DNA from: an uncultured virus (IMG/VR IMGVR_UViG_3300037499_000085)
Taxonomy: Duplodnaviria; Heunggongvirae; Uroviricota; Caudoviricetes
Length of the DNA: 20,000 nucleotides
Reading direction: 5' to 3' (one strand)
Virus record (IMG/VR): IMGVR_UViG_3300037499_000085
A program made the translations under genes and the position numbers. Under the pieces are notes generated by a model, which saw only the letters and a program-made list of their open reading frames with translations, was not told where the DNA came from and made no database searches. Of the stretch, positions 1-19,902 are shown one piece after another; position 1 is the stretch's first letter, and each line of letters begins with the position of its first letter.

Positions 1-1025
1 ATGGCGTCAGCAGCGGTCAGGCTGACCACACTGCCACCGACGGCCGCGACACCCGTGACGACGCCCTCGGGGTTCGGCGGAGTGCCGTTGCCGATGATGA
101 ACGCCGTGGCCTCTTCGGTGTCCTTGGCTTCGGCGAACATGGTCGCCAGCTCGCCGCGCATCTGCGACCAGTCCTGGTCGATCTCGAAGCTGAACGGGAC
201 GAAGCCCTGCACGCGAGACGGCGTGACGGTCGGCTGTGCAATCGTCGGCGCGTTGTCTCCGGCTTCAGCCGCTTCCGCCGCACGGGACACGGTGATCCCG
301 GCCGACGTGACGCCCTGCCACTGCTTGCCCACGATCTGGACCACGCGGGCGATCTGCCGGATCGGGTTGACCACTCCGGCGTCCGTGAGGATCACGGAGG
401 GGTCCAGGTTGAACGGGACCGCGAAACCGCCGGTCGTGGTCGCGCCGACGGCCAGCGCCGCACGCTCTTCGTTCGAGAGACCGTTCAGGGATCCCGCGAG
501 GGCCGCCTTGCCGAACGCCCGGTCGTACACCGCAGAGCCGGTCTGGAGGATGCCGCGCGCGAGGGTGCCGTCCTTGTCGTCCACCCGGCGAAGCAGCCGT
601 TCGATGTGGCCGCGCGTGGCGTCCTCGTCGTTGACCGAGTCGTAGTGGTTCATCTCGACGGCGCGGAGAGCGTTGTCCCGCATGGCGCGGGTCAGGTCGT
701 CCACGTTGCGCGCATCGCGGCGCAGGGCCGTGATGTCGTAGATGTTCTCTGCGGTGCGCTTCTTGATCACGTTGGGCGGGGAGAACGGCGTGCCGTCCTC
801 GGTTGAGCTGGAACCCGCCAGGGCCGCGAGACGCTGGGCACGCGCGTTGGCCGCCGCGATGCTCGCGGTGTGCTCCTCGTACTCCGCGCTGATCGAGTCC
901 CACTCGGTCTGCCGCTCCTCAGGGAGGACCGCGCCGTTGTACTCCGCGTCGAGTTCCTGGAGCCGGGTCCGGATCTCTGCCTGGCGCTGCTCGCGCTCAG
1001 ACACCGTCATGGTCAGCTCGTCCAT
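1..1025 (-). CDS. Major capsid protein (HK97 fold with N-terminal coiled-coil delta domain), internal in-frame start, partial
   Basis: AAGGAG 7 nt upstream of ATG 1025, in frame with 2399 (1374 nt = 458 codons). Begins MDELTMTVSEREQRQAEIRTRLQELDAEY (coiled coil), followed by HK97 capsid motifs. Confidence 0.8.
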   Translation of the reverse strand, partial: MDELTMTVSEREQRQAEIRTRLQELDAEYNGAVLPEERQTEWDSISAEYEEHTASIAAANARAQRLAALAGSSSTEDGTPFSPPNVIKKRTAENIYDITALRRDARNVDDLTRAMRDNALRAVEMNHYDSVNDEDATRGHIERLLRRVDDKDGTLARGILQTGSAVYDRAFGKAALAGSLNGLSNEERAALAVGATTTGGFAVPFNLDPSVILTDAGVVNPIRQIARVVQIVGKQWQGVTSAGITVSRAAEAAEAGDNAPTIAQPTVTPSRVQGFVPFSFEIDQDWSQMRGELATMFAEAKDTEEATAFIIGNGTPPNPEGVVTGVAAVGGSVVSLTAADA

Positions 1026-2399
1026 ACGAGCACTCCTTTGAACTGCCTCTGCCTTCGGGGGAGTTGGAGTGCTTACGCGGCTCCGAGGTACTGCGGGAGC
1101 GGCGGCTGCGGCCTTGGCCGGAGTGCCCTGCGCCGGAACGACCGGCGGGGTGGTCGTGCTCTTCTTCTCGTCGTCCGGGATAGAGATCCCGAACTTCTTC
1201 GCAGCGGCCTTGATCTTGTCCTTGATGGGACCAAGGTGCTCCGGGGAGTACTTGCCCGCGTTGTCCGGCTGGTTGATGTAGGACCATGCTGCCTGAACAT
1301 GATCCTTCGAGTCCAGCGGGTAGCGCTTCTTCTTGTCTTTCTGGTATCCGGGGTCAGCATACGGCACGTCACCGTAGGGCTTCGCCGGATCGGCCGCGCG
1401 AACCCATTCCACAGCCTCATCCGGGGTGTACCCGGACCCGAGCAGGGCGGTCAGGTAATCGGTGTGGGACCGGACGTCGTCCAGGGGGGTCTCCACCGGG
1501 GGCATGACCTCTGTTACCTGGTCCTCGGTGTACCCGGCGTCCACCAGGGCTATGACCACCTGGGACCGGGCGGTAAGAAGCGCGCACGCTCCGACACATC
1601 CGCAACCTTCACAGTGGCAGTACACCCCACGGGCGCACTCACAGTTTTCGGACCGGCCGGGCTCGTTGTCCACCTTGGCCAGCGCCCGCGCTGCTGCCAC
1701 CGTTTCGCGCGTCTCTCGTGCCGACCTGAGCGCCGTCTCGAACTCTTCCGGCCGCCGCCGCTTGAGCGCCTCGTAGTACTCATCGGTGGTCGACCGCAGA
1801 CCGGCCGACGACTCCGCGTTAGCGGGGAACATCGTCGGTCCGAACTCCATGACCTTGACTTCCTTCACGGTCCGCTCGGGGATCCCGTTCGGGTTGGAGC
1901 TGGAGCGCTCGGGCTCTTCGATCCACTCGTCCTGTAGGACCCGGAAGCGGAACGACGATCCGTACGCACCAGCTTCCAGCGCGGGCCGGAGGTCGCGCAC
2001 GTAGGACGTGTCAAGCAGCGGCACCTCGTACCGAGCGCCGTGGCCGTCCTCTTCCAGGACCCGGGGCACACCGAGGGGCTTGTCAGCCACTTGCGGGTCA
2101 TGGCCGTGTTCGAGGAGAACCTTGATCTTCTCGCCCGCGTTCTTCCGGGCCGCGTCGTCGTTGAAGGTCTTCTTGAACGCGCCGGACGCGATGCGCTCAA
2201 GGAACCGGCCCTCGAACTGCGAGTTGATCTCGTACCAATTGCCGAACGCCGAGAAGTGGCCTTCCATCACGTGGACGTCCGGGCCACCGTCCTTCTCCGC
2301 GCGTTCCAGGCGTACCTCGCCGAGATCCGACTGTGTACGGCATACCGGAACCGGAAGCCTGACAGGAGGACCCTCGATCGTCTCGATTTGATCGGTCAT
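1..2399 (-). CDS. Prohead protease (HK97-type) + Cys-rich segment + DUF6582-like domain + major capsid protein, one continuous ORF, 3' end outside the window
   Basis: Manual translation from ATG 2399 (ATGA overlap with the upstream ORF) has no stop to the window edge, which explains its absence from the ORF track. Protease motifs: MEGHFSAFGNWYEI, FLERIASGAFKKT, VLLEHGHD, YGSSFRFRV, EFGPTMFPA. Then KPYGDVPYADPGYQKDKKKRYPLD...AAWSYIN, then capsid motifs GGFAVPFNLDPSVIL, NPIRQIARV, QGFVPFSFEI. Confidence 0.9.
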   Translation of the reverse strand, partial: MTDQIETIEGPPVRLPVPVCRTQSDLGEVRLERAEKDGGPDVHVMEGHFSAFGNWYEINSQFEGRFLERIASGAFKKTFNDDAARKNAGEKIKVLLEHGHDPQVADKPLGVPRVLEEDGHGARYEVPLLDTSYVRDLRPALEAGAYGSSFRFRVLQDEWIEEPERSSSNPNGIPERTVKEVKVMEFGPTMFPANAESSAGLRSTTDEYYEALKRRRPEEFETALRSARETRETVAAARALAKVDNEPGRSENCECARGVYCHCEGCGCVGACALLTARSQVVIALVDAGYTEDQVTEVMPPVETPLDDVRSHTDYLTALLGSGYTPDEAVEWVRAADPAKPYGDVPYADPGYQKDKKKRYPLDSKDHVQAAWSYINQPDNAGKYSPEHLGPIKDKIKAAAKKFGISIPDDEKKSTTTPPVVPAQGTPAKAAAAAPAVPRSRVSTPTPPKAEAVQRSARMDELTMTVSEREQRQAEIRTRLQELDAEYNGAVLPEERQTEWDSISAEYEEHTASIAAANARAQRLAALAGSSSTEDGTPFSPPNVIKKRTAENIYDITALRRDARNVDDLTRAMRDNALRAVEMNHYDSVNDEDATRGHIERLLRRVDDKDGTLARGILQTGSAVYDRAFGKAALAGSLNGLSNEERAALAVGATTTGGFAVPFNLDPSVILTDAGVVNPIRQIARVVQIVGKQWQGVTSAGITVSRAAEAAEAGDNAPTIAQPTVTPSRVQGFVPFSFEIDQDWSQMRGELATMFAEAKDTEEATAFIIGNGTPPNPEGVVTGVAAVGGSVVSLTAADA

Positions 2400-2562: not shown

Positions 2563-4578
2563 TCACAGGACCACCTCTACGTCGTATCCGTCATCGGTGA
2601 CGGCCGTCACCCGGTACGTCGTTCCGGGTGGCAGGATCCATTCGTCTTCGTTCCCGTGAGAATAGACCGAATAGACTTCCAGCACTTGAGTGCCCTTCGG
2701 CATCGTGATGTTCAGGGTGTCCCCCTTGGACCCTTCCCCGCGCATCATCGGAGCCATGGCGAAGAGATCCGCTATCGCTTCGTCCGTGGTGCTACTGGTG
2801 AAACCGCGATCATCGAACTCGTCTCCGACGTTCATGTCCGGGAGCTTGTTGCCACCCCGGAGAACGGTCGTATCTTCGGCCAGAGGTTTTTGGATATTGA
2901 TCAAGTCATTCAGTGCGCGGGCCGACTCCCTCTCCCCCTCCTCCGTCATGCCCTTCACCGGCCTGCCCTTCCGCAGGTAGGCGTTCACGGTCGGGGCATC
3001 TATGTAGTCCTCCAGCGCCTGAAGCTGCTCTTCTTCGGTGTAGTCGGCAGAGCCGAGAGAACCGCCACGAGGCGGACCCAGTTGACGCAGACCACCACGG
3101 CCCCGGTTCCCGGGGTGGAGTTTGTGGTACCCGGGGTCCCCCAGACTGCCGTGCCGTTCACTGGCCCTGCCCGGTGCTTTTGGGGTGTCGTCATCACCCG
3201 GCGGGAGTTCCTTCGGCTCTTCTCCGGGCGGAAGCTCCGGAGCACTGCCGTCAGGAGGTGTCTCCCCGTCGGGTGTCTCACCCGGAGCGAGCAACTGCAC
3301 CGAAACCAGGCCGGTGTGCTGGAGCAGCGTGACGTCACCGGCCGCCACAGCCTTCACAGACGATTCCGGAGTGAAACCACCCTGCACGAACTTGATCACG
3401 GATGCCGAGTTTTCCGCCATGATTTTGGCAGCTTCTAGCTGATCAGTGCGCAGGAACGCGATGTCCCGGTCGTCGTACCACAGACGTACGGACCGGCTCG
3501 ACGTAGGCATAGGAGTGATCGACTGGTAGGCAGCGGATACCGACTGCCACAAGGACCGGAGAGTCTTGTCCGCGAAAGATTCTTTCGCGCTCTTGTAGTT
3601 GCCCGAGTTGAGGCTCGACCCCTGCATGCCCTCGGAGAACCCGACCACCACGGACGGCACTCCGGCGGCGGCAGCGATACGTGTTTCTCCGCTTCCCTGC
3701 ACCGACTTGAAGTCCATCTGAATCATGTTCGCGCCGACGATACTGACGTCCGTGCCGCCACCGAGGTACATCGTTTTGTAGGCGTTTTCGATGCCCCCGT
3801 TGGACGCCTCGAAGGCTTCCATCAGCTCTAGGAACTGGGCTTTGGTAACGGTGTCCTTGACGGACACTGCCAGCTTGGGGGTGGCCGCGTTCGATACAAA
3901 CTTGGCCTTGTGATCGGTGTACGCCTTGTCAGCCTGAATCTCCCGGAGCACCGGCGTCAGCCACGACATGCCCCGGTACTGCGCTTCCGGGTCCGGGATG
4001 GGAGACCAGTGCGCCATTTCCTCGGGGAAGTAGATCTTCGGGGCACCGTTGTTGATGCCGCCGGGGTAATACGCGTACCCGACCACATCGGATTCAACGG
4101 CCTGGTCCGGCGGGGCGCTCAGCAAGATCTGTACCCAGTCCGGCCGGAGCCGTCGGAGCCGGTCCTTCTCACGCACCACGTAGTGATTCCCGGAGAGATC
4201 TGCGTCCTGAATCGCACGGGACAGAAGTTCACCGGTCGTGCCGTTCGGCCATGGGTTCTCCAGCAATGCCAGCGACGCCGATCCGAAAAGATCGCCCGGC
4301 CGTCCGTTCGTGATCCGCTGGAACTGGAACCGAGCCTGTGAGAACACCGATCGCCGTGCCTCCATACACGCGAACACGATGCCGTTGCTCTTGTACAGGC
4401 CGTGGATGTAGCCGAGAAAAGAATTCTCGATCGATTCGGTATCGTTCGAAGTGGTAGTGCCGGACAGCAGATAGCCGAGACCCTGGTAGGTCATTTGCTC
4501 GTACCATTCGGCCATGGAGATGACCGGGTCCCCGCGCTCTTCCGGCCGTCCGAGAAGGGACCGCCATAGCTTAGCCAT
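2563..4578 (-). CDS. HK97-family portal protein with C-terminal VIP2-like (R-S-E) ADP-ribosyltransferase domain
   Basis: Portal motifs VFACMEARRSVFS, LLENPWPNGT, GNHYV, RLRPDWV, YRGMSWL, ETRIAAAAGVPSVVVG, and position after TerL. A Pro/Glu/Gly linker leads to ALEDY...VNAYLR...VLRG...GFTSSTTD...LNITMPKG...NEDEWILPPGTTYRV. Confidence 0.9.
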   Translation of the reverse strand: MAKLWRSLLGRPEERGDPVISMAEWYEQMTYQGLGYLLSGTTTSNDTESIENSFLGYIHGLYKSNGIVFACMEARRSVFSQARFQFQRITNGRPGDLFGSASLALLENPWPNGTTGELLSRAIQDADLSGNHYVVREKDRLRRLRPDWVQILLSAPPDQAVESDVVGYAYYPGGINNGAPKIYFPEEMAHWSPIPDPEAQYRGMSWLTPVLREIQADKAYTDHKAKFVSNAATPKLAVSVKDTVTKAQFLELMEAFEASNGGIENAYKTMYLGGGTDVSIVGANMIQMDFKSVQGSGETRIAAAAGVPSVVVGFSEGMQGSSLNSGNYKSAKESFADKTLRSLWQSVSAAYQSITPMPTSSRSVRLWYDDRDIAFLRTDQLEAAKIMAENSASVIKFVQGGFTPESSVKAVAAGDVTLLQHTGLVSVQLLAPGETPDGETPPDGSAPELPPGEEPKELPPGDDDTPKAPGRASERHGSLGDPGYHKLHPGNRGRGGLRQLGPPRGGSLGSADYTEEEQLQALEDYIDAPTVNAYLRKGRPVKGMTEEGERESARALNDLINIQKPLAEDTTVLRGGNKLPDMNVGDEFDDRGFTSSTTDEAIADLFAMAPMMRGEGSKGDTLNITMPKGTQVLEVYSVYSHGNEDEWILPPGTTYRVTAVTDDGYDVEVVL

Positions 4579-4738
4579 CAGGCTTGTCCTCCTCGCGTTC
4601 GTCCACCAGTAGCGGCACGCCGATCAGGACCGAGAGACCAGTACCGAAGAGAGCCCACGGTCCGAAGATCCAGGTGAGTCCCGTCGCGATCATAGCAACC
4701 GAAATCAGAACGAAGATCAGGGCTTCACGATGAGTCAC
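4571..4738 (-). CDS. Small two-helix membrane protein (55 aa)
   Basis: GTG 4738 overlaps the TerL stop (GTGA). Hydrophobic segments ALIFVLISVAMIATGLTWIF and WALFGTGLSVLIGVPLLV. Similar genes commonly lie between terL and portal in actinophages. Confidence 0.7.
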   Translation of the reverse strand: MTHREALIFVLISVAMIATGLTWIFGPWALFGTGLSVLIGVPLLVDEREEDKPDG

Positions 4739-6375
4739 CTCGTCACCACCCACGGGGCAGTCGGCTCATGGTCACTCGATTTGGTCTGGAAGCCCCATAC
4801 CGCGAGTGTGGCTGCGACAAGCGGAGAAATGTCGGTCGTGGTGTTCTTGCGGTCCCATGCCCACAGTTCTGCGAGATCGCGCTTCGCCGCGCCGGAAACC
4901 GCAAGCGTCATGGGCAACTGATCCCGGTGCGCGAGTAGCTGGGGCTGACCATTCGTAGTCATGATCGCGGAACCGAACCACCCGCACGCTTGCGCGTAAT
5001 CCCGCGCCGTAGGGCATGTGACTTCCATGCCGCGCCGCTTCATCACACTGCCGTCCTTCTCAAGATCCTTGATCAGTGAACCCGCCTGACTGGCCCTGTC
5101 GATCACGATGGCACACGGATTCCAGCGTTCGATCAGCTCCTCCACACGGGCCACCACCCATCGGTCGCCCGGCCGGTGGTCCAGCTCGTCAGCGCCGGTG
5201 ATCTCGATATGCGCGAGGCCGTCCTGGTTGATACCGGCCACCACGATGCATGCATACCGCCGGTCCGGCGTCATGTCGATGGCGAAAGCGACCGGCGCGA
5301 CCGGCGACGAGGTGGGATCCGCGCAGGTTTTCCAGGCCGCTTCGCTGATCACAAGCCACGCGTCATCTTCCACCGGCCAGTCACCGAGACCGAGGCGCTC
5401 CCGGTCGAATTCCTCGGGGTCCATCTGCCGCTTCTCGGCCTCGATGTGCTCGAAGGACTGCTGTGCATCGTTCACACCGCCGATCCGGATACCCCATCCC
5501 GGATTGGCTTTGGCGTACGAGCGGATGAGTCGGTTGGTCTTCCGGATGATCTCTTCCTCAGTCATTCCGGGCCGGACCTTGAAACGCTTCTGGTCGTGCT
5601 CCTCGCAATTCTCGGGGCAGAACTGTGAGCACTCCTCCGCCGACCATTCCAGAAACGACACACGAGGTTCGCCGCGCATGCCGCGCCTCCGCAGCCTGCC
5701 GAGCGCGGTCGAGTGCTTCATACCGGCAGATCCCGCGTAGATCACCTGCGGGTTAGGAACAGCGGACAGGGTCGGGAGAATCGCGCCGACCGTGACGCCG
5801 CTGAGGATCATCGCTTCATTGAAGATCAGACAGTCGCACGTCCAGCCACGGCCGCCGCCCTCGGTGCGCGTACGGAAGCGCAACTCGCGCTTGACCCCGT
5901 CCCGGATGATCTCGAAACCTTCCTTGCCGTGGCTCCGGCTGACGCTGCCCTTGTGAGTGACGAGAAACCGGTCGAGATCCGGCGATGCCATGATCAGTTC
6001 TTCCACCCGCTGGAAGTGCCTCAGCGATGTGTCGAACAGGTGCGCCGAGTGGATGATCAGCTCGTCGTCTTCCGCGAGAAACAGGCCGAACAGCTCACGC
6101 GCTTCGAGGACTACGTCCTTGCCGTTCTGACGTCCGGCGATCAGCCCGAACTCCTTGGAAGCCCACCGGCCGTCATCCTGTACGCCAAGCAGCTCATCAA
6201 GCGCGAGGGCTTCCCACGGGTCCATGGTGAGGCCCGCCATTTCGGCAAGTTCGACAGCTTCCCGACCACGCGTACTGATCTTGGGCGGAACACAGTAGAC
6301 CCGGGGCGTCTGGTCCCCCATCTCGGGAAGAACGAGCCTCGGATCCCACGGGCTGATGTGATCAAGAAGAGCCAT
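4735..6375 (-). CDS. terL: Terminase large subunit
   Basis: Walker A region GRQNGKD, IIHSAH, FRTRTEGGGRG, Walker B LIFNEA, coupling motif YAGSA, nuclease AFAIDM and C-terminal DISPLVAAT. Lies directly upstream of the portal. Confidence 0.95.
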   Translation of the reverse strand: MALLDHISPWDPRLVLPEMGDQTPRVYCVPPKISTRGREAVELAEMAGLTMDPWEALALDELLGVQDDGRWASKEFGLIAGRQNGKDVVLEARELFGLFLAEDDELIIHSAHLFDTSLRHFQRVEELIMASPDLDRFLVTHKGSVSRSHGKEGFEIIRDGVKRELRFRTRTEGGGRGWTCDCLIFNEAMILSGVTVGAILPTLSAVPNPQVIYAGSAGMKHSTALGRLRRRGMRGEPRVSFLEWSAEECSQFCPENCEEHDQKRFKVRPGMTEEEIIRKTNRLIRSYAKANPGWGIRIGGVNDAQQSFEHIEAEKRQMDPEEFDRERLGLGDWPVEDDAWLVISEAAWKTCADPTSSPVAPVAFAIDMTPDRRYACIVVAGINQDGLAHIEITGADELDHRPGDRWVVARVEELIERWNPCAIVIDRASQAGSLIKDLEKDGSVMKRRGMEVTCPTARDYAQACGWFGSAIMTTNGQPQLLAHRDQLPMTLAVSGAAKRDLAELWAWDRKNTTTDISPLVAATLAVWGFQTKSSDHEPTAPWVVTR

Positions 6376-6821
6376 TACTGAACGCGCCTGCCCCGCCGAC
6401 GGCCGTTGCCGTCACGACGGGGTGCGCCCATGGATCCGGGCCGCCGAGCCGCCAGCTCGTCATACGCGGAAGCCGTGGCCGGATGCTCCGGCGCCTTCGA
6501 GGCGTCCACCTCTTCGATTCCCTGCGCCTTCATGATCTGCTTAACGAGCGACGAGGCCACCTCGACCGACCGGTTGTCGCCGTTGCTGGCCTTGACCCAT
6601 ACACCGGCCAGCAACCGGGAAAGCCGGGCCATGCTGAGCGATCGACTGGCCGCCGGAGACAGAGCGTCGACCGGATTCTCAGTGAGCGCCTGCTCGATAT
6701 CTCCGATGGCTTCTGCTCGGTCGGCGTAACCGCATTCCGTGGCGATCGACTCCCAGTCGACTCCCGCCAGAGCGAAGCCAAGGGCCCGCTTCCTGCGCCG
6801 CTGAAGCGCTTCAGTCTCCAT
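6375..6821 (-). CDS. terS: Probable terminase small subunit (N-terminal HTH)
   Basis: RRKRALGFALAGVDWESIATECGY HTH-like N-terminus, helical core, C-terminal YDELAARR motif, and TAATG coupling to terL. Confidence 0.7.
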   Translation of the reverse strand: METEALQRRRKRALGFALAGVDWESIATECGYADRAEAIGDIEQALTENPVDALSPAASRSLSMARLSRLLAGVWVKASNGDNRSVEVASSLVKQIMKAQGIEEVDASKAPEHPATASAYDELAARRPGSMGAPRRDGNGRRRGRRVQ

Positions 6822-7710
6822 CGCGCATCACCCCTTTGGTCCGTTCACGGTACGCGATGGCACGCTGGTTCTCGTCTGCCTCGCTGCCACACTTGGTCAT
6901 CGCGGCACGCATGTAGGCGACCAACGAGATCCGCTCTGCATCGCAGGTGTCGCAGAACCGTGTCCGGCGCGCACCGCACGCACAGATGATCGCAGTATTC
7001 CCGTGCCACTGGTGCGCGTCCATGAGGATCAAATCGCCGTCCTGGAGATCGACGCCTACCCGGTACTCCGGAAACACGAACCGGCCGCCGGTGTACGAAC
7101 CGCGCCGGATGACCCCGAGCGTGCTGAATCCCTTGTCAAGGTCGCCTTTGTCGGTGTGCACACCGGTCGGGTAGGTGTTGTTCACGGTGATGGTGGTGAA
7201 CGGCGTACCGGGTACCACCCAATCCTGATGCGTGGCGTTGATCTCTTCCATCTGCGCCTCGTACCGGTCCGGAACGTACTGATGCAGCTTCACGGCGATC
7301 TGTTGGAGCATCGGCTGCAACAGTTCCCACTCCGGCAGGTGCTTGCCGGTCCAGGCGGTGAGTCGGCAGTACGGGAACCTACGGCTCTCGTCCATGACCC
7401 CGAGGATATTGCTGGACACCCTCATGGCCCGGTTCTGCTTACCGACCACGGTCAGTTTCTTGGAGCCGCTGGCCATGGCCCGGTTGTCGGTCAGCTCGCC
7501 CCGGAAGGAGTGCAGTACGGCGTACTGTTCCGCGCTCACATGGTCCTTCAGAACCCCGGGGAGATAGACGCAGAGCAGCTTGCCGTCCGGCATGTAGACC
7601 CGGCTCGGGCCGGTAAGCAGGACGTTGAATGCATCGTCCCCGACCACCCGGCCGATCTTGGTATCCAGCTCTTCTGTGGACACCCGGGACCTGACCCTGA
7701 CACTGATCAT
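6811..7710 (-). CDS. TET/JBP-family 2OG-Fe(II) dioxygenase (5-methylpyrimidine hydroxylase)
   Basis: YCRLTAWT, TPFTTITVNN, HxD (HTDKGD), GGRFVFPEY, distal His (HQWHGNT) and 2OG-binding Arg (ERISLVAY, compare TET RISLVFY). Start placed at ATG 7710 by the ATGA overlap. Confidence 0.9.
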   Translation of the reverse strand: MISVRVRSRVSTEELDTKIGRVVGDDAFNVLLTGPSRVYMPDGKLLCVYLPGVLKDHVSAEQYAVLHSFRGELTDNRAMASGSKKLTVVGKQNRAMRVSSNILGVMDESRRFPYCRLTAWTGKHLPEWELLQPMLQQIAVKLHQYVPDRYEAQMEEINATHQDWVVPGTPFTTITVNNTYPTGVHTDKGDLDKGFSTLGVIRRGSYTGGRFVFPEYRVGVDLQDGDLILMDAHQWHGNTAIICACGARRTRFCDTCDAERISLVAYMRAAMTKCGSEADENQRAIAYRERTKGVMRDGD

Positions 7711-8708
7711 CGGTGCTTCACCTCGACGACCGGAAGTTCCCACTTCCGCCGGACCGGCGCCGTGAACGGTTCACCGAGCAGGGCGTCTTGGATGACTGCC
7801 TCGTCGCCGGTCCGGGGTTCTTCCATGGTGTTCTTGCCGGTGCGGTCCGGCAAGAGGCCGTTCCGGTAGGTGCGATGGGTGCAGCCCTGACACGGTGCGT
7901 AGTCCCGTCTGCCCGCGTACAACCGGCGCCGTGCCGCCTGGAACTCTTCGCCCTGCCACAGACCGGACAGCCGGATCCGCTTTACCGAACCGATCTTGTA
8001 GACACCTCGCCAGTCGTTGCAGCACAGGGCCACGTTGCCGTCCCACCGGACGCTGATCTCCCGGAAGGGAAGCGCGCACCGCTCACCGTTCCTCCGGTCG
8101 TCCAGCTCCCCCGCTGAACCAGCATGGTTGGACAGATGACTGTGGTTGCCGGTGTTCGCCTGACTGATGTCCTGGACGAGTACGAGGCGCCGTTCAGCGC
8201 CACGCGGCCGTCGGTGCGGGTTTCCTGCCGGGCCCCCCTGCGGGTACCGGTGCACCGTGACGCCGGGCAGGACGGTACTCAGGACCGCTTCCTCCGCCCG
8301 GTAGGGCCGGTAGTTGTCGACCGCGATGGTGTTCGCCCCGGCATCGAACAAGTCGGCCACGGCGGAGCGCCACCGGTCCAGCAACGGAATGCCGTTGGTC
8401 GTAACGAGCACCGGCCACGGACCGCGTTCGCGAAACGCAGAGACAAGCCTGGGAAGATCCTCGTTCATGGTGGGTTCGCCGTGCATGGCGAACTCGATGC
8501 GGGGATTCCACCCGGCGTCGGCGATGTCATCGGCGATCATGTCCGCCGTGTCCGGCGTCATGTACTTGTACGGGCCGCTGAGGTTGTCCCGGTCACCACT
8601 CTCGCGGATACCCCGGATGCCGCAGAAACCGCACCTGAGGTTGCAGCCCTCGGTCGCCTCGACCTGGACACTGTTGGGCGGATCTTGGGTGACTTGCGTG
8701 CGGGTCAT
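7707..8708 (-). CDS. Radical SAM enzyme with SPASM/twitch domain
   Basis: CxxxCxxC (CNLRCGFC), HGEPTM, VTTNG, and C-terminal CALPF...DGNVALCC...PCQGC. Start at ATG 8708 by the ATGA overlap, with GGAG upstream. Confidence 0.9.
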   Translation of the reverse strand: MTRTQVTQDPPNSVQVEATEGCNLRCGFCGIRGIRESGDRDNLSGPYKYMTPDTADMIADDIADAGWNPRIEFAMHGEPTMNEDLPRLVSAFRERGPWPVLVTTNGIPLLDRWRSAVADLFDAGANTIAVDNYRPYRAEEAVLSTVLPGVTVHRYPQGGPAGNPHRRPRGAERRLVLVQDISQANTGNHSHLSNHAGSAGELDDRRNGERCALPFREISVRWDGNVALCCNDWRGVYKIGSVKRIRLSGLWQGEEFQAARRRLYAGRRDYAPCQGCTHRTYRNGLLPDRTGKNTMEEPRTGDEAVIQDALLGEPFTAPVRRKWELPVVEVKHR

Positions 8709-9676
8709 ACCCACTCCTTGATCATGCGCTCCGCGATCATCTGTGCGTCGTGATCCCACAGGACGGGCCGGACGTCGTTGCCAGCGAGCAGCGGGCCCTT
8801 CAGCAGCTCGACCAGATCCTCCGCGTTGGCCACCGGGTGCGCATACGGAGCCATCTCGTCGAGCATGCTGTCCCCGGTCAACCACGCCTTGTTGATGACC
8901 AGTTGGGACCCGGCGTCGAGCGCTTCAAGAAAGGTGTACTGCGTCCCGCCGCCGTCCCCCTTGATCACACTGAGGTCCACCGCGTAGCTCGCGAACCGGG
9001 CCACCCGCACACCTGCCCACAAGCTGGACCGGTGCATGGGGCCGGTGTAGTACGTACGCCAGTCGGGGTCGAGCGCGTCGAGCTTGTGATGGGTGTACAG
9101 CCGGTTCTCGGCACCGTGAATGCGGATGCGGTGCTCCGGCGGAAGCGCGAGGTTGGCCATGACCATGAAATCGGTTCGCTTGTCCCAGTCGAGCCGGGCG
9201 AAGGACGCCGCATGGTACCGGCGCCCGGTACGAGGTGGCATGGCGCAACGTACGTACGGGTGCGGCATGTACCGGGCGTGCGGCAGGTGCCGGAGCATGG
9301 TCCGCCGGATGACCCACAGCGGAGCGCCGCCGTGGTCCACGGCGTCCCGCATTCCGCCCTTCAGCTCCGTAGGGTCATGGATGACAAGCGCCGCACCGGC
9401 GTCCCTGAGTTCGGCCGTCAGTTCCGGCCCTGCGGACTTGTCCACCGCAGTGATGATCATCCGGCCGCTACGGGCCAGGACGTCCAGTCCGGCGGCAGAC
9501 ATGTTCCGGTACTGCAACCCCATGCCGAAGTCGCGCTCATGGTTCTCGGTACGGTTGCCCTGCTTGACCAGGCTGACCGTGTGACCGGCTGCTCGCAGCC
9601 CACGGGCCAGATGCGCGGTGTAGCTGACCCACCCGCCCGTCACCGGCTTCGCCAAATAGGCCAGGGTGACGTTCAC
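8705..9676 (-). CDS. Glycosyltransferase, GT-B fold (TET-associated type)
   Basis: N-terminal GGWVSYTAHLARGLRAAGHTV, VIHDPTE, FARLDWDKR and GGGTQYTFLEALDAG resemble GT-B/GT4-type motifs. GTG 9676 overlaps the stop of the ParB-like gene. Confidence 0.75.
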   Translation of the reverse strand: MNVTLAYLAKPVTGGWVSYTAHLARGLRAAGHTVSLVKQGNRTENHERDFGMGLQYRNMSAAGLDVLARSGRMIITAVDKSAGPELTAELRDAGAALVIHDPTELKGGMRDAVDHGGAPLWVIRRTMLRHLPHARYMPHPYVRCAMPPRTGRRYHAASFARLDWDKRTDFMVMANLALPPEHRIRIHGAENRLYTHHKLDALDPDWRTYYTGPMHRSSLWAGVRVARFASYAVDLSVIKGDGGGTQYTFLEALDAGSQLVINKAWLTGDSMLDEMAPYAHPVANAEDLVELLKGPLLAGNDVRPVLWDHDAQMIAERMIKEWV

Positions 9677-10404
9677 TCGGCAGGCTCCTCGACCAGAACC
9701 TTGGTGCTCGGTTCTGCGGCGCATGAGCACTCGGACGCCAGAGCCACCGCAGCCACCCGAGCCGCGCGGAGTACGGTCTCCCCCTGGCTCAACTGCCCCC
9801 AGGATTCCCGGAGTTTGGTGATCAGCTTGCCCAGTTCGTCAGCCTGCTCGACCGGAAGCGCCAGGATGACGTCCCGGACGCCCCGGGATTCCATGGTGCG
9901 GGATTCCGGGTCTCCCTGTTCGCGGATGCGCTCCTCACGCTCCCCGATGTCGTCGTTGTACTCAGCTACCTCCGGCTCCCGGTATTCGGTGATCTCGGCT
10001 TCCTCGTACTTCGCGAGGATGCTGTCGACTTCCGCCTCGTCGTAGCCGATGCCGGTGTAGTCGTCCAGGCCGGAGAGGATCGCGGCGAGCGCCTGCTCGT
10101 CGTCCTCGGCGAGATCGCTGGACCGGTTGTCGACGATGTTGATCCGGCGCGCAGTGTCCTCGTCGCACTCGATGATCTCGCACCGGGCCTGAGCACCGCC
10201 CAGCTCGTCTATGGCGATCATGGTGTGGTTTCCCGCGAGCACCACCTGAGGCCCGTCCTTGATCTCCCGGACGATGAGCGACCGGTACTGGCCGTTCTTC
10301 ACGATGGACTCTTTGATCACGTCCACCCGGCCGCGCCGTGCGTTTCCGGGGAACGGGATGAGCTGGTCGAGCGGCAGCATTTCGGTTCGGAGGTAGCGGG
10401 TCAT
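9673..10404 (-). CDS. ParB/Srx-like N-terminal domain protein
   Basis: LPLDQLIPFPGNARRG...IKESIVKNGQYRSLIV...VLAGNHT...INIVDNRSSD, the phage ParB-like domain often associated with DNA-modification genes. Acidic C-terminal half. Confidence 0.85.
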   Translation of the reverse strand: MTRYLRTEMLPLDQLIPFPGNARRGRVDVIKESIVKNGQYRSLIVREIKDGPQVVLAGNHTMIAIDELGGAQARCEIIECDEDTARRINIVDNRSSDLAEDDEQALAAILSGLDDYTGIGYDEAEVDSILAKYEEAEITEYREPEVAEYNDDIGEREERIREQGDPESRTMESRGVRDVILALPVEQADELGKLITKLRESWGQLSQGETVLRAARVAAVALASECSCAAEPSTKVLVEEPAE

Positions 10405-11018
10405 ATGTCGGCGTCCTCAAGTTCGATCACGACGGCTCGGTCTTCCGCAGCTATGGTCGCACTTCGTTCGTCCGCCACCACGTACAGGACCCGGATCTCT
10501 GCATCGATCACTACGACTTCGCTGCTCGGTTCAACGGAATCGATCACGGCGTCGTACGCGGTGCCCGATCCGAATGCCGCGCCGGACACACCCTCGCTTG
10601 TGGCGTCCACTTCCGCGTTGTACGCGATGCCTGTGGCTGCGGCCGTACCGGCGGTGTACGACTGGCTAGGGCGGCCTTCAGGGTTGAAAGCCTCACCGGT
10701 GCCTGTCGCGGTGCCCGTGGTGGTCTGCACCGAAGCGTCGTAGGCCGTTCCGGTGCCGGTAGCTATGCCGGGCGTTGCCTCGAACGATGTGCCTGCCACG
10801 GCATCGAACGCCGTGCCGGTGCCGGTCGCCGTCTCCGGCGCAGCCTGCGACGCCGGTCCGGCCGTCGCGTCGAACGCTTCGCCGGTGCCGGTCGCCGTCT
10901 CCGGCGCAGCCTGCGCCGCCGGATCCGCCGTTGCGTCGAACGCCTCGCCGATGGCTTCCGCCGTACCGGCATCAGCTTCGGTTACCGCCTGAGCCTGGAA
11001 GAGGATCAGCAGAGACAC
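10401..11018 (-). CDS. Ala/Thr/Gly-rich repeat protein, putative virion fibre component
   Basis: GAGGAGG RBS before GTG. About 7 repeats of AxGxGxA(F/Y)(D/N)A. C-terminal repeated (I/V)xA(E/D)xR motif. Confidence 0.7.
   Translation of the reverse strand: MSLLILFQAQAVTEADAGTAEAIGEAFDATADPAAQAAPETATGTGEAFDATAGPASQAAPETATGTGTAFDAVAGTSFEATPGIATGTGTAYDASVQTTTGTATGTGEAFNPEGRPSQSYTAGTAAATGIAYNAEVDATSEGVSGAAFGSGTAYDAVIDSVEPSSEVVVIDAEIRVLYVVADERSATIAAEDRAVVIELEDADI
10815..10915. repeat. Intragenic direct repeat with 66-bp period (35-bp identical core)
   Basis: GCCGGTGCCGGTCGCCGTCTCCGGCGCAGCCTGCG at 10815 and 10881, encoding QAAPETATGTG twice. Confidence 0.9.
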
Positions 11019-11050
11019 GGCTTCCTCCTCGTCCGGGTCAGGTCAGGGCA

Positions 11051-12805
11051 TCAAACGTTCATGGGGTTGATCTCAATCTTGACCCCGATGTACGGAGCGC
11101 TAGCCGTAGCCACGGCTCCCGTGGGGAACGTGTTGGGTAGGGCTCCGGTGCCCTGGCCGGTCAGCCGGAACCCACTCGGAATGGATGCGGTAGTGGTGTA
11201 CGCGTTCCCGTTGGTCTGCACGTTGGGCATGACGAAGTTCGGGCCCTGGATGACCCGGAACGTATGGGCCTGGCCTACGGTGATCACCTTCATGGCAAGC
11301 CAGTACAAGCCCGGATCCATGTAGTGATTGATTGATCCGGTACCGCTGGTCGGAGAAAATTTCGGCCCTGCTGTTCCAGTCACGCTGAACGCTCCAGCCG
11401 CTGTTAGTTCGGTGACCAGATCCTTCGGGTACCCGTCCCACGCGATATCTTCGTACACCCCCCACCGGATGGTGGATGGGCTGACATTGTCCGTTGCTGC
11501 AAGTTGCATCGCGAACTGAGTCATCCGGTCCCGGGCATTAGTGATCCAGAACGGAATCGCCCACAAATCTTCAGCAACCGGGGTCGCAGCGGACGCCACT
11601 GTGTAATCAGCGGTGTACCAACGACCGCTGATGTGCGGACGCAGGATCCCACCGGCGCGCGGTGCTGACGGGTTGAGATTCTGTGTCGGGCTGTCCGATG
11701 TGGGGGTAAGCCGCCGCATGGCGCTTCGTATGGCGTCTGCGATGCGCGCTGCTCCGCGTTCGTCCGGGTGCAAGCCGTCCGAGCTGTACCAGATCTTCGC
11801 CAGCGCGGAGTCAATGTCGGCGATCTGCACCATGGAATCGAACTCGGAGACCAGCGCGCGAAGGTCCGCGTTCCAGGTGTCCACATCATCGTCACGAGAC
11901 GATTCGGTACCGGCCCACCCGGGATAGCTGTTCGTGTACCCGGTGGCGGTCAATTTGCTGATGTTGCACACAACGACCGGCGGGGGAACCTTCGATTCGA
12001 GCCACCAGCAGTCGAACATCACCGCGCCACCGGAATCCATGGCAGTCACTGTGCCGACGATGGTGTCTCCAGCGTTGGCCGACGTGAGGCCGGTTACCCG
12101 CTTGATGATCGGGCAGTGTGTAGCAGCGGCTGACGGCATGACGTCTGATGTGTTGGTCGTACCGGTGACCCCGGCCGTGCCGGACCACGTCACGGTGCCT
12201 GCCGCCGCACCTCCGGCCCCTACCAGGAGGATGCCGATCGGCTCGCCGTCGTAGTCCGCCGGGAGGGTCAGTGTGAAGAAATCGTCCGCGTCCGGCGTGC
12301 CGTCGATACACCAGTGAACTGAGTTGTTGGTCGTGTAGGCAACCGGAGCGATCTCACCAAATCCGGCGCCGTACGACGTGCGGGTACCCACCTGGAAGTT
12401 GTTCTCGTAGATCACCGACGCACGCCATATGCTGAGGGCCGTCCGCATGGCGTGAATGAACCCGGTCCTGATCTGCGTGGTGACGCCGGTCACGCCCATG
12501 TCGTTGATGCCGTAGCAGAGCACCATGGCCCCGCCCTCGGATACGTACGGGCCGCCGCGTTGCGGGCGGTTGGTGCGCTTGAGGATGCGCTCGTACCCGC
12601 CGGTGGAACTCCCCTCCGTGGTGATCCGGGCGCCGGACACCGCGAAGTTGTGCCAGTTCACCGTCTCGATGTCCAGGGATGCCCGGAACAAGGAATCGGA
12701 CCGGCCGGTCTGGAAGTACGTTCCGAAGCTGTAGTTCATGAACGAATGGCCGTAGACGGTCCAGAAGTCCGGGACCTGATATTCCTTGCGTGCTTCGAGT
12801 GGCAT
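11051..12805 (-). CDS. SGNH/GDSL hydrolase domain protein, probably virion-associated
   Basis: SGNH blocks: YGHS (I), NFAVSGA (II), YGIND (III), DGLHP (V). A beta-rich insert lies between blocks III and V, and there is a C-terminal beta domain (PGLYWLA). Confidence 0.8.
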   Translation of the reverse strand: MPLEARKEYQVPDFWTVYGHSFMNYSFGTYFQTGRSDSLFRASLDIETVNWHNFAVSGARITTEGSSTGGYERILKRTNRPQRGGPYVSEGGAMVLCYGINDMGVTGVTTQIRTGFIHAMRTALSIWRASVIYENNFQVGTRTSYGAGFGEIAPVAYTTNNSVHWCIDGTPDADDFFTLTLPADYDGEPIGILLVGAGGAAAGTVTWSGTAGVTGTTNTSDVMPSAAATHCPIIKRVTGLTSANAGDTIVGTVTAMDSGGAVMFDCWWLESKVPPPVVVCNISKLTATGYTNSYPGWAGTESSRDDDVDTWNADLRALVSEFDSMVQIADIDSALAKIWYSSDGLHPDERGAARIADAIRSAMRRLTPTSDSPTQNLNPSAPRAGGILRPHISGRWYTADYTVASAATPVAEDLWAIPFWITNARDRMTQFAMQLAATDNVSPSTIRWGVYEDIAWDGYPKDLVTELTAAGAFSVTGTAGPKFSPTSGTGSINHYMDPGLYWLAMKVITVGQAHTFRVIQGPNFVMPNVQTNGNAYTTTASIPSGFRLTGQGTGALPNTFPTGAVATASAPYIGVKIEINPMNV

Positions 12806-16693: not shown

Positions 16694-17119
16694 TCAGACC
16701 CCACTCGGGACAGTCAGCGTACCGGCTGTTATGGACACGTCAACCCCGACGCTGATCGTTGTGGTGTTCAAGATCAAAGTAGTACTGGACGTGCCCACGT
16801 CGCCGTCGAGAATCGTGCCGATGTTGCCGGTGCCGACCGACTCCATACGGAAAAACGTCGCCGTACCGGCTGCCACACCTTCGGCGGTGCGGGGGGTACC
16901 TCCGAGGGTGATAGTTCCGCTGGACGATGTGCCGAACGCCGGGTCATCGAGGTCGAACGTGGCCAAGAGCGTGTTACCGGCCAGTGCGGTATCCGCCGTG
17001 GCAGGCTGGGTGCCGGAGTACAGCTTGATCGTGGCAGCATCATCACCACTGTTGATCGCGTCGTCCAGCGAGTCCCCGAGCCGGTTACGGGTTGCTCCTG
17101 AGAGCCGGAGGTTGGCCAT
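16694..17119 (-). CDS. Putative virion fibre subunit
   Basis: IKLYSGTQPATADTA..NTLLATF...AAGTATFFR...LDGDVG...LNTTTI pattern resembles small phage fibre proteins (recognised from memory). Confidence 0.7.
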   Translation of the reverse strand: MANLRLSGATRNRLGDSLDDAINSGDDAATIKLYSGTQPATADTALAGNTLLATFDLDDPAFGTSSSGTITLGGTPRTAEGVAAGTATFFRMESVGTGNIGTILDGDVGTSSTTLILNTTTISVGVDVSITAGTLTVPSGV

Positions 17120-18869: not shown

Positions 18870-19034
18870 CTAGACAGGTATGCATCGCGGCTCCCGTATC
18901 CACTCGATGGGCGCCTCGTTGAGCAGCTCCCGGACAGTGGCCCGGTCGGCACCCATGTGTTCGGCGATGGCGTTCATGGACAGTCCTTGATCGTTGAGCA
19001 GGACGGCCCTGATGATCTTCACTTGCTCACTCAT
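18870..19034 (-). CDS. Small helix-turn-helix protein (54 aa)
   Basis: ATGA overlap with the HNH stop. QGLSMNAIAEHMGADRATVRELL is a typical HTH. Confidence 0.75.
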   Translation of the reverse strand: MSEQVKIIRAVLLNDQGLSMNAIAEHMGADRATVRELLNEAPIEWIREPRCIPV

Positions 19035-19759
19035 GATCTGCTCCTGTTGCCTTTGATGATGTTGCATCGGAGGTGCGCCAACTGGACGTTGACCCGTGTG
19101 TCAGGGCCACCCTTGGAGATCGGAATGATGTGGTCAATAGTCGGGCCCCGGAGGTTCCGGCCGGACAGCGTCATGTCCACCGGCTCTTCGCACAGACCGC
19201 AGATGAACCCGTCGCGCTCCGCGATCTCCTCCGTGGTGTAGCGCTCGGTGGGGAGGCCAAGCTTCAGCGCCTGTCGGCGCCGGTTCTTGTCACGCCAGAT
19301 TCGGTTTCTCGGTGCCCGGAACTCAGGAGTCAGCCGCCACGCTTCGAGACAAGGCTGACAACGAGGCACGTTGGCCGTGCTGCGCACATCCGTGCCGCAG
19401 CCCACGCATACGCGCGGCACCCTGGGGGTTGTGTCAACAGCCGTAGACCATGCCGCTTGGTAACACGTGCGCGAACAGTACTTTCGATCACTGGTCACCA
19501 TCTTCGTGAACACTCCGCTACAGCCCGCACACTCCGCATCTAGCCGTGGCTTCTTCCGGCACTCATGACACCGACGGCCGCCCTCGGGGACCGGGCCACG
19601 ATCTTCGATGCCCTTCCCACACCCACCGGCGCAAGCGACACGCGCCCGACCCGACTTCCTCGGAGGCATACCTTCTGCGCGCTTTTTGGCGTACCAGGCA
19701 CGAGAGTAAGCAGCTCGTTTCTCCTTCTCCGTCATATCCGATTTGATCTCCTTGTCCAT
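19031..19759 (-). CDS. HNH endonuclease with multiple N-terminal Zn-ribbon motifs
   Basis: C-terminal ERDGFICGLC...TIDHIIPISKGG...NVQLAHLRCNIIKG, with six upstream Cys pairs. Start placed at ATG 19759 (MDKEIK). Confidence 0.9.
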   Translation of the reverse strand: MDKEIKSDMTEKEKRAAYSRAWYAKKRAEGMPPRKSGRARVACAGGCGKGIEDRGPVPEGGRRCHECRKKPRLDAECAGCSGVFTKMVTSDRKYCSRTCYQAAWSTAVDTTPRVPRVCVGCGTDVRSTANVPRCQPCLEAWRLTPEFRAPRNRIWRDKNRRRQALKLGLPTERYTTEEIAERDGFICGLCEEPVDMTLSGRNLRGPTIDHIIPISKGGPDTRVNVQLAHLRCNIIKGNRSRS

Positions 19760-19800
19760 ACGCCAAGTGTACCGTAATGATTTGTAATTGCAGGTGCAAA
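19760..19800 (-). promoter_or_regulatory. Possible leaderless promoter of the HNH gene
   Basis: TACACT (19771-19766) lies 6 nt upstream of ATG 19759 with no SD, the geometry of actinobacterial leaderless genes. The -35 element is unclear. Confidence 0.45.
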
Positions 19801-19902
19801 GACGCAGGTAGATCGAGTTTGCTAGATCTTTTAGATGCAAAGACGATCTTTCGGGGCGCGTTTGCGATCTTGGTCCGAAGATCGATTTGCAGTGCAAAGA
19901 CG
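19795..19902 (+). repeat. Three perfect 10-bp direct repeats TGCAAAGACG
   Basis: Copies at 19795, 19836 and 19893 in an AT-rich, probably non-coding region. Confidence 0.9.

Follow-up and report, generated by a model that had tools for sequence, protein, structure and literature searches.

A ParB, glycosyltransferase, radical SAM and TET/JBP gene cassette beside the terminase genes of an uncultured phage: a proposed DNA hypermodification operon

The stretch of DNA analyzed here (the window; 20,000 nucleotides) derives from an uncultured member of the Caudoviricetes (IMG/VR record IMGVR_UViG_3300037499_000085), shows a G+C content ranging from 58 to 69%, and carries all of its real genes on the minus strand. 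Lying ahead of the terminase genes is a cassette of four genes, which encode a ParB-like protein (10404→9673, 243 a.a, ATG start), a GT-B glycosyltransferase (GT; 9676→8705, 323 a.a, GTG start), a radical SAM (rSAM) enzyme (8708→7707, 333 a.a, ATG start), and a TET/JBP dioxygenase (7710→6811, 299 a.a, ATG start). The order and overlaps of these genes are as claimed in a preliminary description of this DNA, with the junctions read directly from the minus strand as GTGA (9676–9673, ParB/GT), ATGA (8708–8705, GT/rSAM), and ATGA (7710–7707, rSAM/TET). The claimed overlap with the next open reading frame (ORF) likewise holds, as the TET stop codon (6813–6811) lies 11 nt within an ORF (6375–6821, ATG at 6821, minus strand) for a small helix-turn-helix (HTH)-like protein of 148 a.a, the putative small terminase subunit (terS). 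This name is based on the position directly upstream of the large terminase subunit gene (terL), a match to phrog_645 (E = 1.3e-11, a doubtful label), and viral HTH-like Atlas neighbor clusters; no homology links the protein to the terS (Terminase_4) encoded at the related locus L002. The identity of terL itself (4735–6375, minus strand, 546 a.a; phrog_9, E = 1.4e-64) is solid. The start codons of the rSAM and GT genes are backed by full-length homologs of the same size (P0001, 333 a.a, and P0121, 323 a.a, both at 100% coverage), and that of the TET gene by the aligned N-termini of seven TETs. No GenBank phage matched the cassette by megablast, and an exact 41-base pattern from the window end found nothing in metagenome contigs. 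We propose that the cassette serves as an operon for post-replicative DNA hypermodification and that the phage is a high-GC (actinobacterial) one of the temperate type.

The ParB-like protein matched phrog_723 (E = 2.3e-42), and its single sequence gave no Pfam match at E ≤ 0.01. A profile of 11 ParBs matched the Spo0J/ParB/Noc N-terminal domain in the PDB (E = 5.4e-12) at profile positions 15–122 only and, given that no match extends past these positions, the protein may comprise the N-terminal domain only, without an HTH. It shares 48–54% identity with the ParBs of TET cassettes of the kinase and amino-acid:DNA transferase (AADT) type described below. The preliminary description had treated ParB-like genes as companions of such loci, but ParB is more than a mere companion, being known to activate one subclass of the thymine dioxygenases of phages on double-stranded DNA (PMC13229309). 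The ParB-like protein is likely the activator of the dioxygenase.

The TET/JBP dioxygenase scored 70.5 bits against the Pfam Tet_JBP profile (cut-off 34.9; E = 1.3e-19), with its iron ligands (H185-x-D187 and H236) and 2-oxoglutarate (2OG)-binding residue (R260) invariant in seven sequences. Among GenBank phages, tblastn returned TET matches in 13 records, all below 60% identity. We surveyed the neighbors of the best 80 of 104 viral TET relatives (45–100% identity), using kinase and AADT profiles seeded from Pfam-verified examples and run for two iterations. A ParB gene lay upstream in 67 of the 80, a P-loop nucleotide kinase 3 was present in 62, and an AADT (PF18724) in 56, with lower counts for a pyridoxal phosphate (PLP) enzyme (27/80), a TAGT-like GT (15/80), a flavin adenine dinucleotide (FAD) enzyme (14/80), and an rSAM (6/80). 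We read this as a probably conserved frame that runs from ParB to TET and the packaging genes, in which the GT-B and rSAM module stands where most relatives have a kinase and AADT (plus PLP/FAD enzymes in some). The arrangement is similar to that of the ParB-dependent thymine dioxygenases, in which members of 5mYOX clade C1 pair with a cognate ParB, as in 5mYOX176/ParB176 (O'Toole et al., PNAS 2026; PMC13229309). In the window, too, a TET with intact Fe/2OG residues sits beside an apparently N-domain-only ParB, ahead of the terminase genes and with no C5-methyltransferase nearby, and P-loop kinase, AADT, and PLP/FAD enzymes are encoded next to the closest relatives of the TET (up to 74% identity). 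The tailoring module of the window differs, being a GT-B and a BtrN-like rSAM instead of kinase/AADT, and the 5mYOX C1 likeness of the TET is one of domains and gene company, not of tree placement.

Regarding the base that is modified, the preliminary description had allowed for either thymine or 5-methylcytosine (5mC). Kinase and AADT genes keep company with the ParB-dependent subclass of thymine dioxygenases (PMC13229309), and kinase, AADT, and PLP enzymes belong to thymidine-hypermodification machinery (PMC8989533). No C5-methyltransferase was found in the 20-kb window (Pfam on long ORFs; tblastn), nor in any of five related viral records with TET and rSAM (35–86% complete). Given that the closest relatives of the TET keep company with 5-hydroxymethyluracil (5hmU) machinery (ParB, kinase, and AADT) and that no C5-methyltransferase was found, conversion of thymine to 5hmU appears the likelier first step. 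The thymine side of the earlier claim is thus favored and 5mC appears the less likely substrate. We consider it quite unlikely that the base is instead cytosine, with a C5-methyltransferase elsewhere in the phage or host making 5mC, which the TET would convert to 5-hydroxymethylcytosine (5hmC) ahead of the GT and rSAM. Beyond the lack of a methyltransferase and the 5hmU-specific kinase and AADT of the TET relatives, this conflicts with the ParB linkage, which marks the thymine dioxygenase subclass (PMC13229309), and with the 5-hmdU-DNA-kinase-like gene seen at most rSAM loci (below). What speaks for cytosine, and hence weighs against thymine, comes chiefly from a prophage-like contig of Actinomadura rayongensis DSM 102126 (L083), which carries the order rSAM ... 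ParB-GT-TET-terS-terL and a C5-cytosine methylase (10970–11869; PF00145, E = 6e-57) directly after the rSAM; locus L084 also has such a methylase. Action of phage TETs on 5mC in association with GTs is established (PMC8256090), and the window represents only 20 kb of the phage genome. A 5mC to 5hmC route is thus possible in this lineage, although we continue to favor thymine.

The GT gave no family library match above threshold (Glyco_transf_4, 15.8 bits against a cut-off of 28.5) and none in PHROG or NCBIfam, and none of its 763 homologs is named. Its AlphaFold2 (AF2) model (predicted local distance difference test, pLDDT, 96.4) predicts a GT-B fold with two Rossmann domains. A Foldseek comparison of this model with the PDB returned SenB, MshA, GtfA, PimA, and the T4 alpha-glucosyltransferase with HMU-DNA (E-values from 2e-9 to 2e-8); all top matches are GT-B enzymes, and the T4 enzyme (~1e-8) is no closer than SenB or MshA. 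In the BFVD, the model matched phage DNA alpha-GTs and SP-15 GTs. Among the best 80 of 287 viral GT-B relatives, 27 adjoin a TET, mostly in compact ParB-TET-GT cassettes without an rSAM, and at one further locus the TET profile weakly matched the opposite strand, ~5.5 kb away from the GT. Only eight have an rSAM, all with thymidylate-synthase homologs, and none of the 80 combines GT-B, TET, and rSAM, a combination seen only in the window, its own IMG/VR record, and L083. From the fold and the ParB-TET-GT cassettes, the predicted acceptor of the GT is a 5-hydroxymethylpyrimidine in DNA.

The GT-B fold alone does not name an acceptor, and 42 of the 80 GT-B relatives have no DNA-modification markers nearby, some of them on giant-virus contigs. 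Both points would suit a scheme without any DNA modification, where the GT and rSAM decorate a protein, the cell envelope, or a small molecule and lie near the TET and ParB genes by coincidence. We regard this as extremely unlikely in light of the stop/start overlaps that couple the four genes, their recurrence in another order in L083, and the dominance of thymidylate-synthase homologs, 5-hmdU-DNA-kinase-like genes, TAGT, and DNA polymerase at rSAM loci. As a separate observation, GT-B relatives of 33–38% identity were noted on GVMAG contigs (L197, L201, L206, L209, L210, L212, and others), with no TET, rSAM, or thymidylate-synthase markers nearby.

Clusters of phage TET/5mYOX and GT genes have been described (Burke et al. 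2021, PMC8256090; bioRxiv 10.1101/2023.12.21.572611). The window cassette, if it acts as predicted, would share with these clusters and with trypanosome base J (JBP and JGT) the hydroxylation of a 5-methylpyrimidine followed by O-glycosylation by a GT-A or GT-B enzyme, and ParB and terminase genes are common neighbors in the described clusters as well. In those clusters, unlike in the role proposed for the rSAM, the sugar is tailored at the donor stage by epimerases, cytidylyltransferases, and kinases, and the characterized clusters mostly start from 5mC.

The rSAM enzyme matched both the SPASM (45.2 bits, cut-off 21.5) and Radical_SAM (44.5 bits, cut-off 29.5) families of Pfam. Its CxxxCxxC cysteines (C22/C26/C29) and five further cysteines (C211, C229, C230, C273, and C276) are invariant in 42 sequences so that, together with the TET residues above, the motifs described earlier as intact-looking proved to be conserved. 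A profile of the 42 members matched BtrN at E = 1e-17, aligned across both the core and the twitch domain, and all others at 1e-4 or worse. In this alignment, the HGEP motif corresponds to YGEP of BtrN (a GGE-like SAM motif of the partial TIM barrel), and four twitch cysteines (C211, C229/C230, C273, and C276) are in register with those of BtrN, which we take to be the ligands of its auxiliary [4Fe-4S] cluster. The AF2 model (pLDDT 93.4) likewise found BtrN with substrate (4m7t) as its best Foldseek match (E = 1.6e-15, target TM 0.81), with the next match at 2.7e-7 and later ones comprising sactipeptide enzymes, SpeY (1.2e-6), anSME, AbmM, BlsE, and DesII; of these, SpeY, AbmM, BlsE, and DesII are further rSAMs for sugars or cyclitols. 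The earlier guess of a BtrN-type twitch enzyme is thereby borne out, BtrN being the best match in sequence and fold by a wide margin. In butirosin biosynthesis, BtrN (PDB 4m7t/4m7s) acts as the 2-deoxy-scyllo-inosamine dehydrogenase, and SpeY is likewise a twitch radical SAM dehydrogenase; judged by likeness to these two only, the rSAM may carry out a two-electron oxidation at a secondary alcohol of a sugar or cyclitol. It departs from BtrN in being phage-encoded within DNA-modification operons and in its conserved inserts and C-terminal tail.

Several other assignments for the rSAM were considered and set aside. A full two-cluster SPASM enzyme (seven cysteines) does not agree with the five conserved cysteines after the core, which fit the one-cluster twitch form, and a maturase of peptides that are made on ribosomes and modified after translation (RiPPs) lacks a peptide context, the linkage being to GTs instead. 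Among NCBIfam models, the best match was NF033640 N_Twi_rSAM, at 44.6 bits against a cut-off of 170, and all 19 matches fell far below their cut-offs; no curated model covers the family. An isomerase of the M6 gp53 type was also rejected, as spore photoproduct lyase (SPL) is absent among the sequence matches and the listed fold matches. In thymidine hypermodification, the M6 gp53 protein isomerizes glycinyl-thymine as an SPL-like radical SAM enzyme (Lee et al. 2021, PMC8989533). It is comparable in that a radical SAM enzyme acts in a phage 5hmU-based pathway after a first group has been attached, but it is a member of another rSAM family without a SPASM/twitch domain, and instead of a GT its partners are kinase, AADT, and PLP enzymes.

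The rSAM family is broad, as 1064 out of 5207 candidate proteins matched at E ≤ 1e-3, with named members in Actinomadura and Nocardiopsis, and is moderately basic (median pI 8.5; 28 of 42 above 8). The window rSAM had no match in 50,697 GenBank phage records (tblastn, E ≤ 1e-5), and in IMG/VR, 200 of 221 pattern matches were confirmed. Using the best 80 of these 200 loci, we clustered the neighboring genes, named the clusters by Pfam and PHROGs, and recounted them with profiles. A GT-like gene lay within 5 kb of the rSAM at 75 of the 80 loci, comprising TAGT (63), divergent TAGT-like (27), and window-type GT-B (22) enzymes, with both kinds in 12; these counts describe this set only, as the GT profiles were built from the same loci without a random-locus control. 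Of the five loci without a GT, three are cut by contig ends, namely the window's own record (L001, cut inside the GT) and L061 and L063 (cut beside the rSAM). A source of 5-hydroxymethylpyrimidine was present at 70 loci, being a thymidylate-synthase homolog at 64 and a TET at six, and a 5-hmdU-DNA-kinase-like gene (HMUDK, PF18723) was found at 66. The TAGT and HMUDK families, along with aGPT-Pplase, were reportedly defined by Iyer et al. in 2013. The rSAM is therefore a regular member of 5-hydroxymethylpyrimidine clusters containing a GT. TET-based rSAM loci are few and occur solely in the high-GC branch nearest the window (61–70% identity; L002–L005), and none of HMUDK, the thymidylate-synthase homolog, or TAGT was detected in the window (tblastn, E ≤ 0.01). 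The preliminary description had called for a survey of neighborhoods for co-occurrence of TET, GT, and rSAM; the GT linkage stands, but a TET is present at only six of the 80 loci, and the rSAM mostly accompanies a thymidylate-synthase homolog and HMUDK. Since the GT occurs without the rSAM, and the rSAM almost never without a GT, the rSAM looks like an add-on, with an optional tailoring step as its probable role.

Most rSAM loci in the L006–L080 range (e.g., L060, 5136–8956, and L065, 3225–9716) belong to low-GC, probably marine phages. The common gene order in this range is 5-hmdU-kinase-like, (TAGT), rSAM, (GT-B), thymidylate-synthase homolog, DNA polymerase A, and HD phosphatase, and no AADT was found among the common neighbors. 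In L037 (4522–4977) and L065 (6989–7717), a cupin/mannose-6-phosphate-isomerase-like protein and an FkbM-family methyltransferase are encoded between the kinase, GT, and rSAM genes. In three relatives with TET and rSAM, namely L002 (8083–8823), L004 (7898–8632), and L005 (5434–6168), all on the minus strand, a TAGT-like gene is apparently antisense to the rest of the cassette; the long same-strand ORF that it overlaps is probably spurious.

Five database proteins carry a GT fused to the N-terminus of an rSAM, and three GT types are represented among them. In P0243 (704 a.a, 10 member sequences, NCBI source), residues 1–342 span the whole window GT (36% identity, E = 2e-56), and the C-terminal region shares 43% identity with the window rSAM. 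P0245 combines a TAGT domain (PF20691) with an rSAM, and P0073, P0241, and P0242 combine a TAGT-like domain with an rSAM, their TAGT-like domains sharing 47–52% identity with the stand-alone genes at L003 and L053. Given that three unrelated or distantly related GT types are fused to the same rSAM, the two activities would represent consecutive steps on one substrate, and together with the GT counts these fusions answer the call for a survey of rSAM linkage in favor of a GT partnership. A complex prediction for the window GT and rSAM scored 0.01 against a mark of 0.32, in a run without controls that speaks neither for nor against binding. In a further long rSAM homolog, P0244, a Hint/intein-like insertion that includes an HNH-like segment immediately follows the first cluster cysteines.

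The fusions would serve channeling in either order, and it is conceivable that the rSAM first tailors the nucleotide-sugar donor, with the GT then placing the modified sugar on 5hmU. The characterized structural neighbors of the rSAM (BtrN, SpeY, DesII, BlsE, and AbmM) are all small-molecule enzymes, a finding that fits a donor-sugar role as well as a DNA-bound one, and some relatives carry the extra sugar enzymes noted above. No sugar-activating enzyme is encoded in the window, however, and the basic character of the rSAM family is a weak hint, not decisive, of nucleic-acid binding. Taken together, we hold tailoring of the donor to be unlikely, if not negligibly so. Action of the rSAM on the base itself, for instance from 5-hydroxymethyl to formyl in the manner of anSME, which oxidizes Ser/Cys, or by some other radical reaction at the base, with the GT acting in parallel or afterwards, would find precedent in M6 gp53, which works directly on modified thymine in DNA (PMC8989533), and in the anSME-type and sactipeptide rSAMs among the weaker structural matches. 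This is hard to square with the near-constant GT neighbor and the fusions to three GT types, and BtrN is far closer than anSME (1e-17 against 1e-4), making this route very unlikely.

Our favored reading, toward which we lean by a little, is that thymine is converted to 5hmU by the TET with ParB, O-glycosylated by the GT-B, and then remodeled on the sugar by the BtrN-like rSAM to give nuclease-resistant DNA. In the first step, the TET/JBP enzyme and its cognate ParB would hydroxylate the thymine 5-methyl group in phage DNA, as suggested by the family and by the company of its relatives. Next, the GT-B would move a sugar from a host nucleotide-sugar to the hydroxyl, giving a base-J-like O-glycosyl-5hmU, in keeping with its fold and the ParB-TET-GT cassettes. 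The rSAM might then abstract a sugar hydrogen and either turn a hydroxyl into a ketone (a dehydrogenation of the BtrN/SpeY type) or cause epimerization. The resulting tailored glycosyl-5hmU, a base with no description so far, is suggested by the nearest structure, the near-obligate GT neighborhood, and the GT-rSAM fusions. Finally, the modified DNA would resist host nucleases, a general property of such modification systems. The logic of hydroxylation, glycosylation, and radical tailoring set out in the preliminary description thus gains support from comparative evidence (gene calls, GT linkage, and fusions).

Apart from the Actinomadura methylase, the small-molecule relatives, and the origin of the GT counts given above, several points weigh against this pathway. 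The identity between the rSAM and BtrN is only 16–18%, and the rSAM exceeds BtrN by ~80 residues and has its own conserved motifs (NPHRR and GNHxHLSNHAG); given these differences, its chemistry may differ from dehydrogenation. TET enzymes need O2, and radical SAM clusters are O2-labile. Installation of the modification during packaging, as suggested in the preliminary description, has no support beyond gene order, and an insensitive tblastn search with two terL queries located terL downstream of the TET in only nine of the 64 relatives whose contigs reach far enough. On a wider scale, the rSAM branch spans marine phages and actinophages alike, with over 1000 proteins in the databases and at least 200 contigs in IMG/VR. 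We suggest more tentatively, and with somewhat less than even confidence, that the BtrN-like rSAM marks a widespread and so far undescribed branch of viral DNA hypermodification in which radical chemistry remodels a 5hmU-attached sugar to a keto, epimerized, or rearranged form.

Regarding earlier reports, the word "radical" does not occur in the text of PMC8256090 or of bioRxiv 10.1101/2023.12.21.572611 (the preprint's supplements, which might bear on this, were not covered). "Radical SAM" does not occur in the main text of PMC13229309, and neither this term nor "SPASM" in those of its supplementary files that were examined. A BtrN-like, twitch, or SPASM rSAM linked to phage DNA glycosylation was not found in the full-text literature (Iyer et al. 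2013, which may mention such enzymes, was not covered). ParB-activated thymine dioxygenases, TET and GT clusters, and an SPL-like rSAM in thymidine hypermodification are already known, and what seems new is the proposed radical tailoring enzyme in a TET/ParB/GT system.

If correct, the proposed pathway would yield one or more new natural DNA bases, and a radical SAM enzyme that edits the sugar on a DNA base would represent a new reaction class in DNA modification. To our knowledge, it would also be the first radical SAM enzyme to act on a glycosylated DNA base. Phage DNA hypermodifications decide the escape from restriction, CRISPR, and other nuclease defenses and are a source of epigenetic-sequencing tools, and the TET/ParB and TET/GT systems have only recently been worked out. 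The replacement of kinase and AADT by GT and rSAM within the same ParB-to-TET frame would suggest that phages recombine tailoring modules. The system is also directly testable, as it comprises four genes only, with natural ParB-TET-GT comparators that lack the rSAM, natural GT-rSAM fusions, and a cultured Actinomadura strain with a related prophage.

Directly upstream of the cassette, a fifth ORF (10401–11018, minus strand, 205 a.a), absent from the preliminary description, is joined to the ParB-like gene via an ATGA junction (10404–10401). It encodes 22-a.a tandem repeats (66-nt unit, 2.2 copies, 90% matches) rich in T-G-T-G-x-A-F/Y-D, matched nothing in Pfam, PHROG, or NCBIfam, and had no relative beside the cassette in the other loci; it probably lies outside the cassette chemistry. 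Further upstream are a GDSL-like protein (11051–12805, 584 a.a) and, between 19031 and 11051, structural-looking ORFs on the minus strand, including a virion structural protein (16694–17119; phrog_3758). An HNH endonuclease (19031–19897, minus strand) with a match to a MYND-like zinc finger is located ~12 kb upstream of the terminase genes and does not adjoin them. Downstream of terL, the portal protein (2563–4578, minus strand) has a C-terminal extension (residues 516–662) with a sub-threshold match to an ADP-ribosyltransferase (PF03496, 22.6 bits against a cut-off of 23.4). The last ORF (3–2399, minus strand), a protease-capsid fusion that crosses the window edge, joins a Peptidase_S78 prohead protease and DUF6582 to the N-terminal portion of a major capsid protein of the HK97 type.

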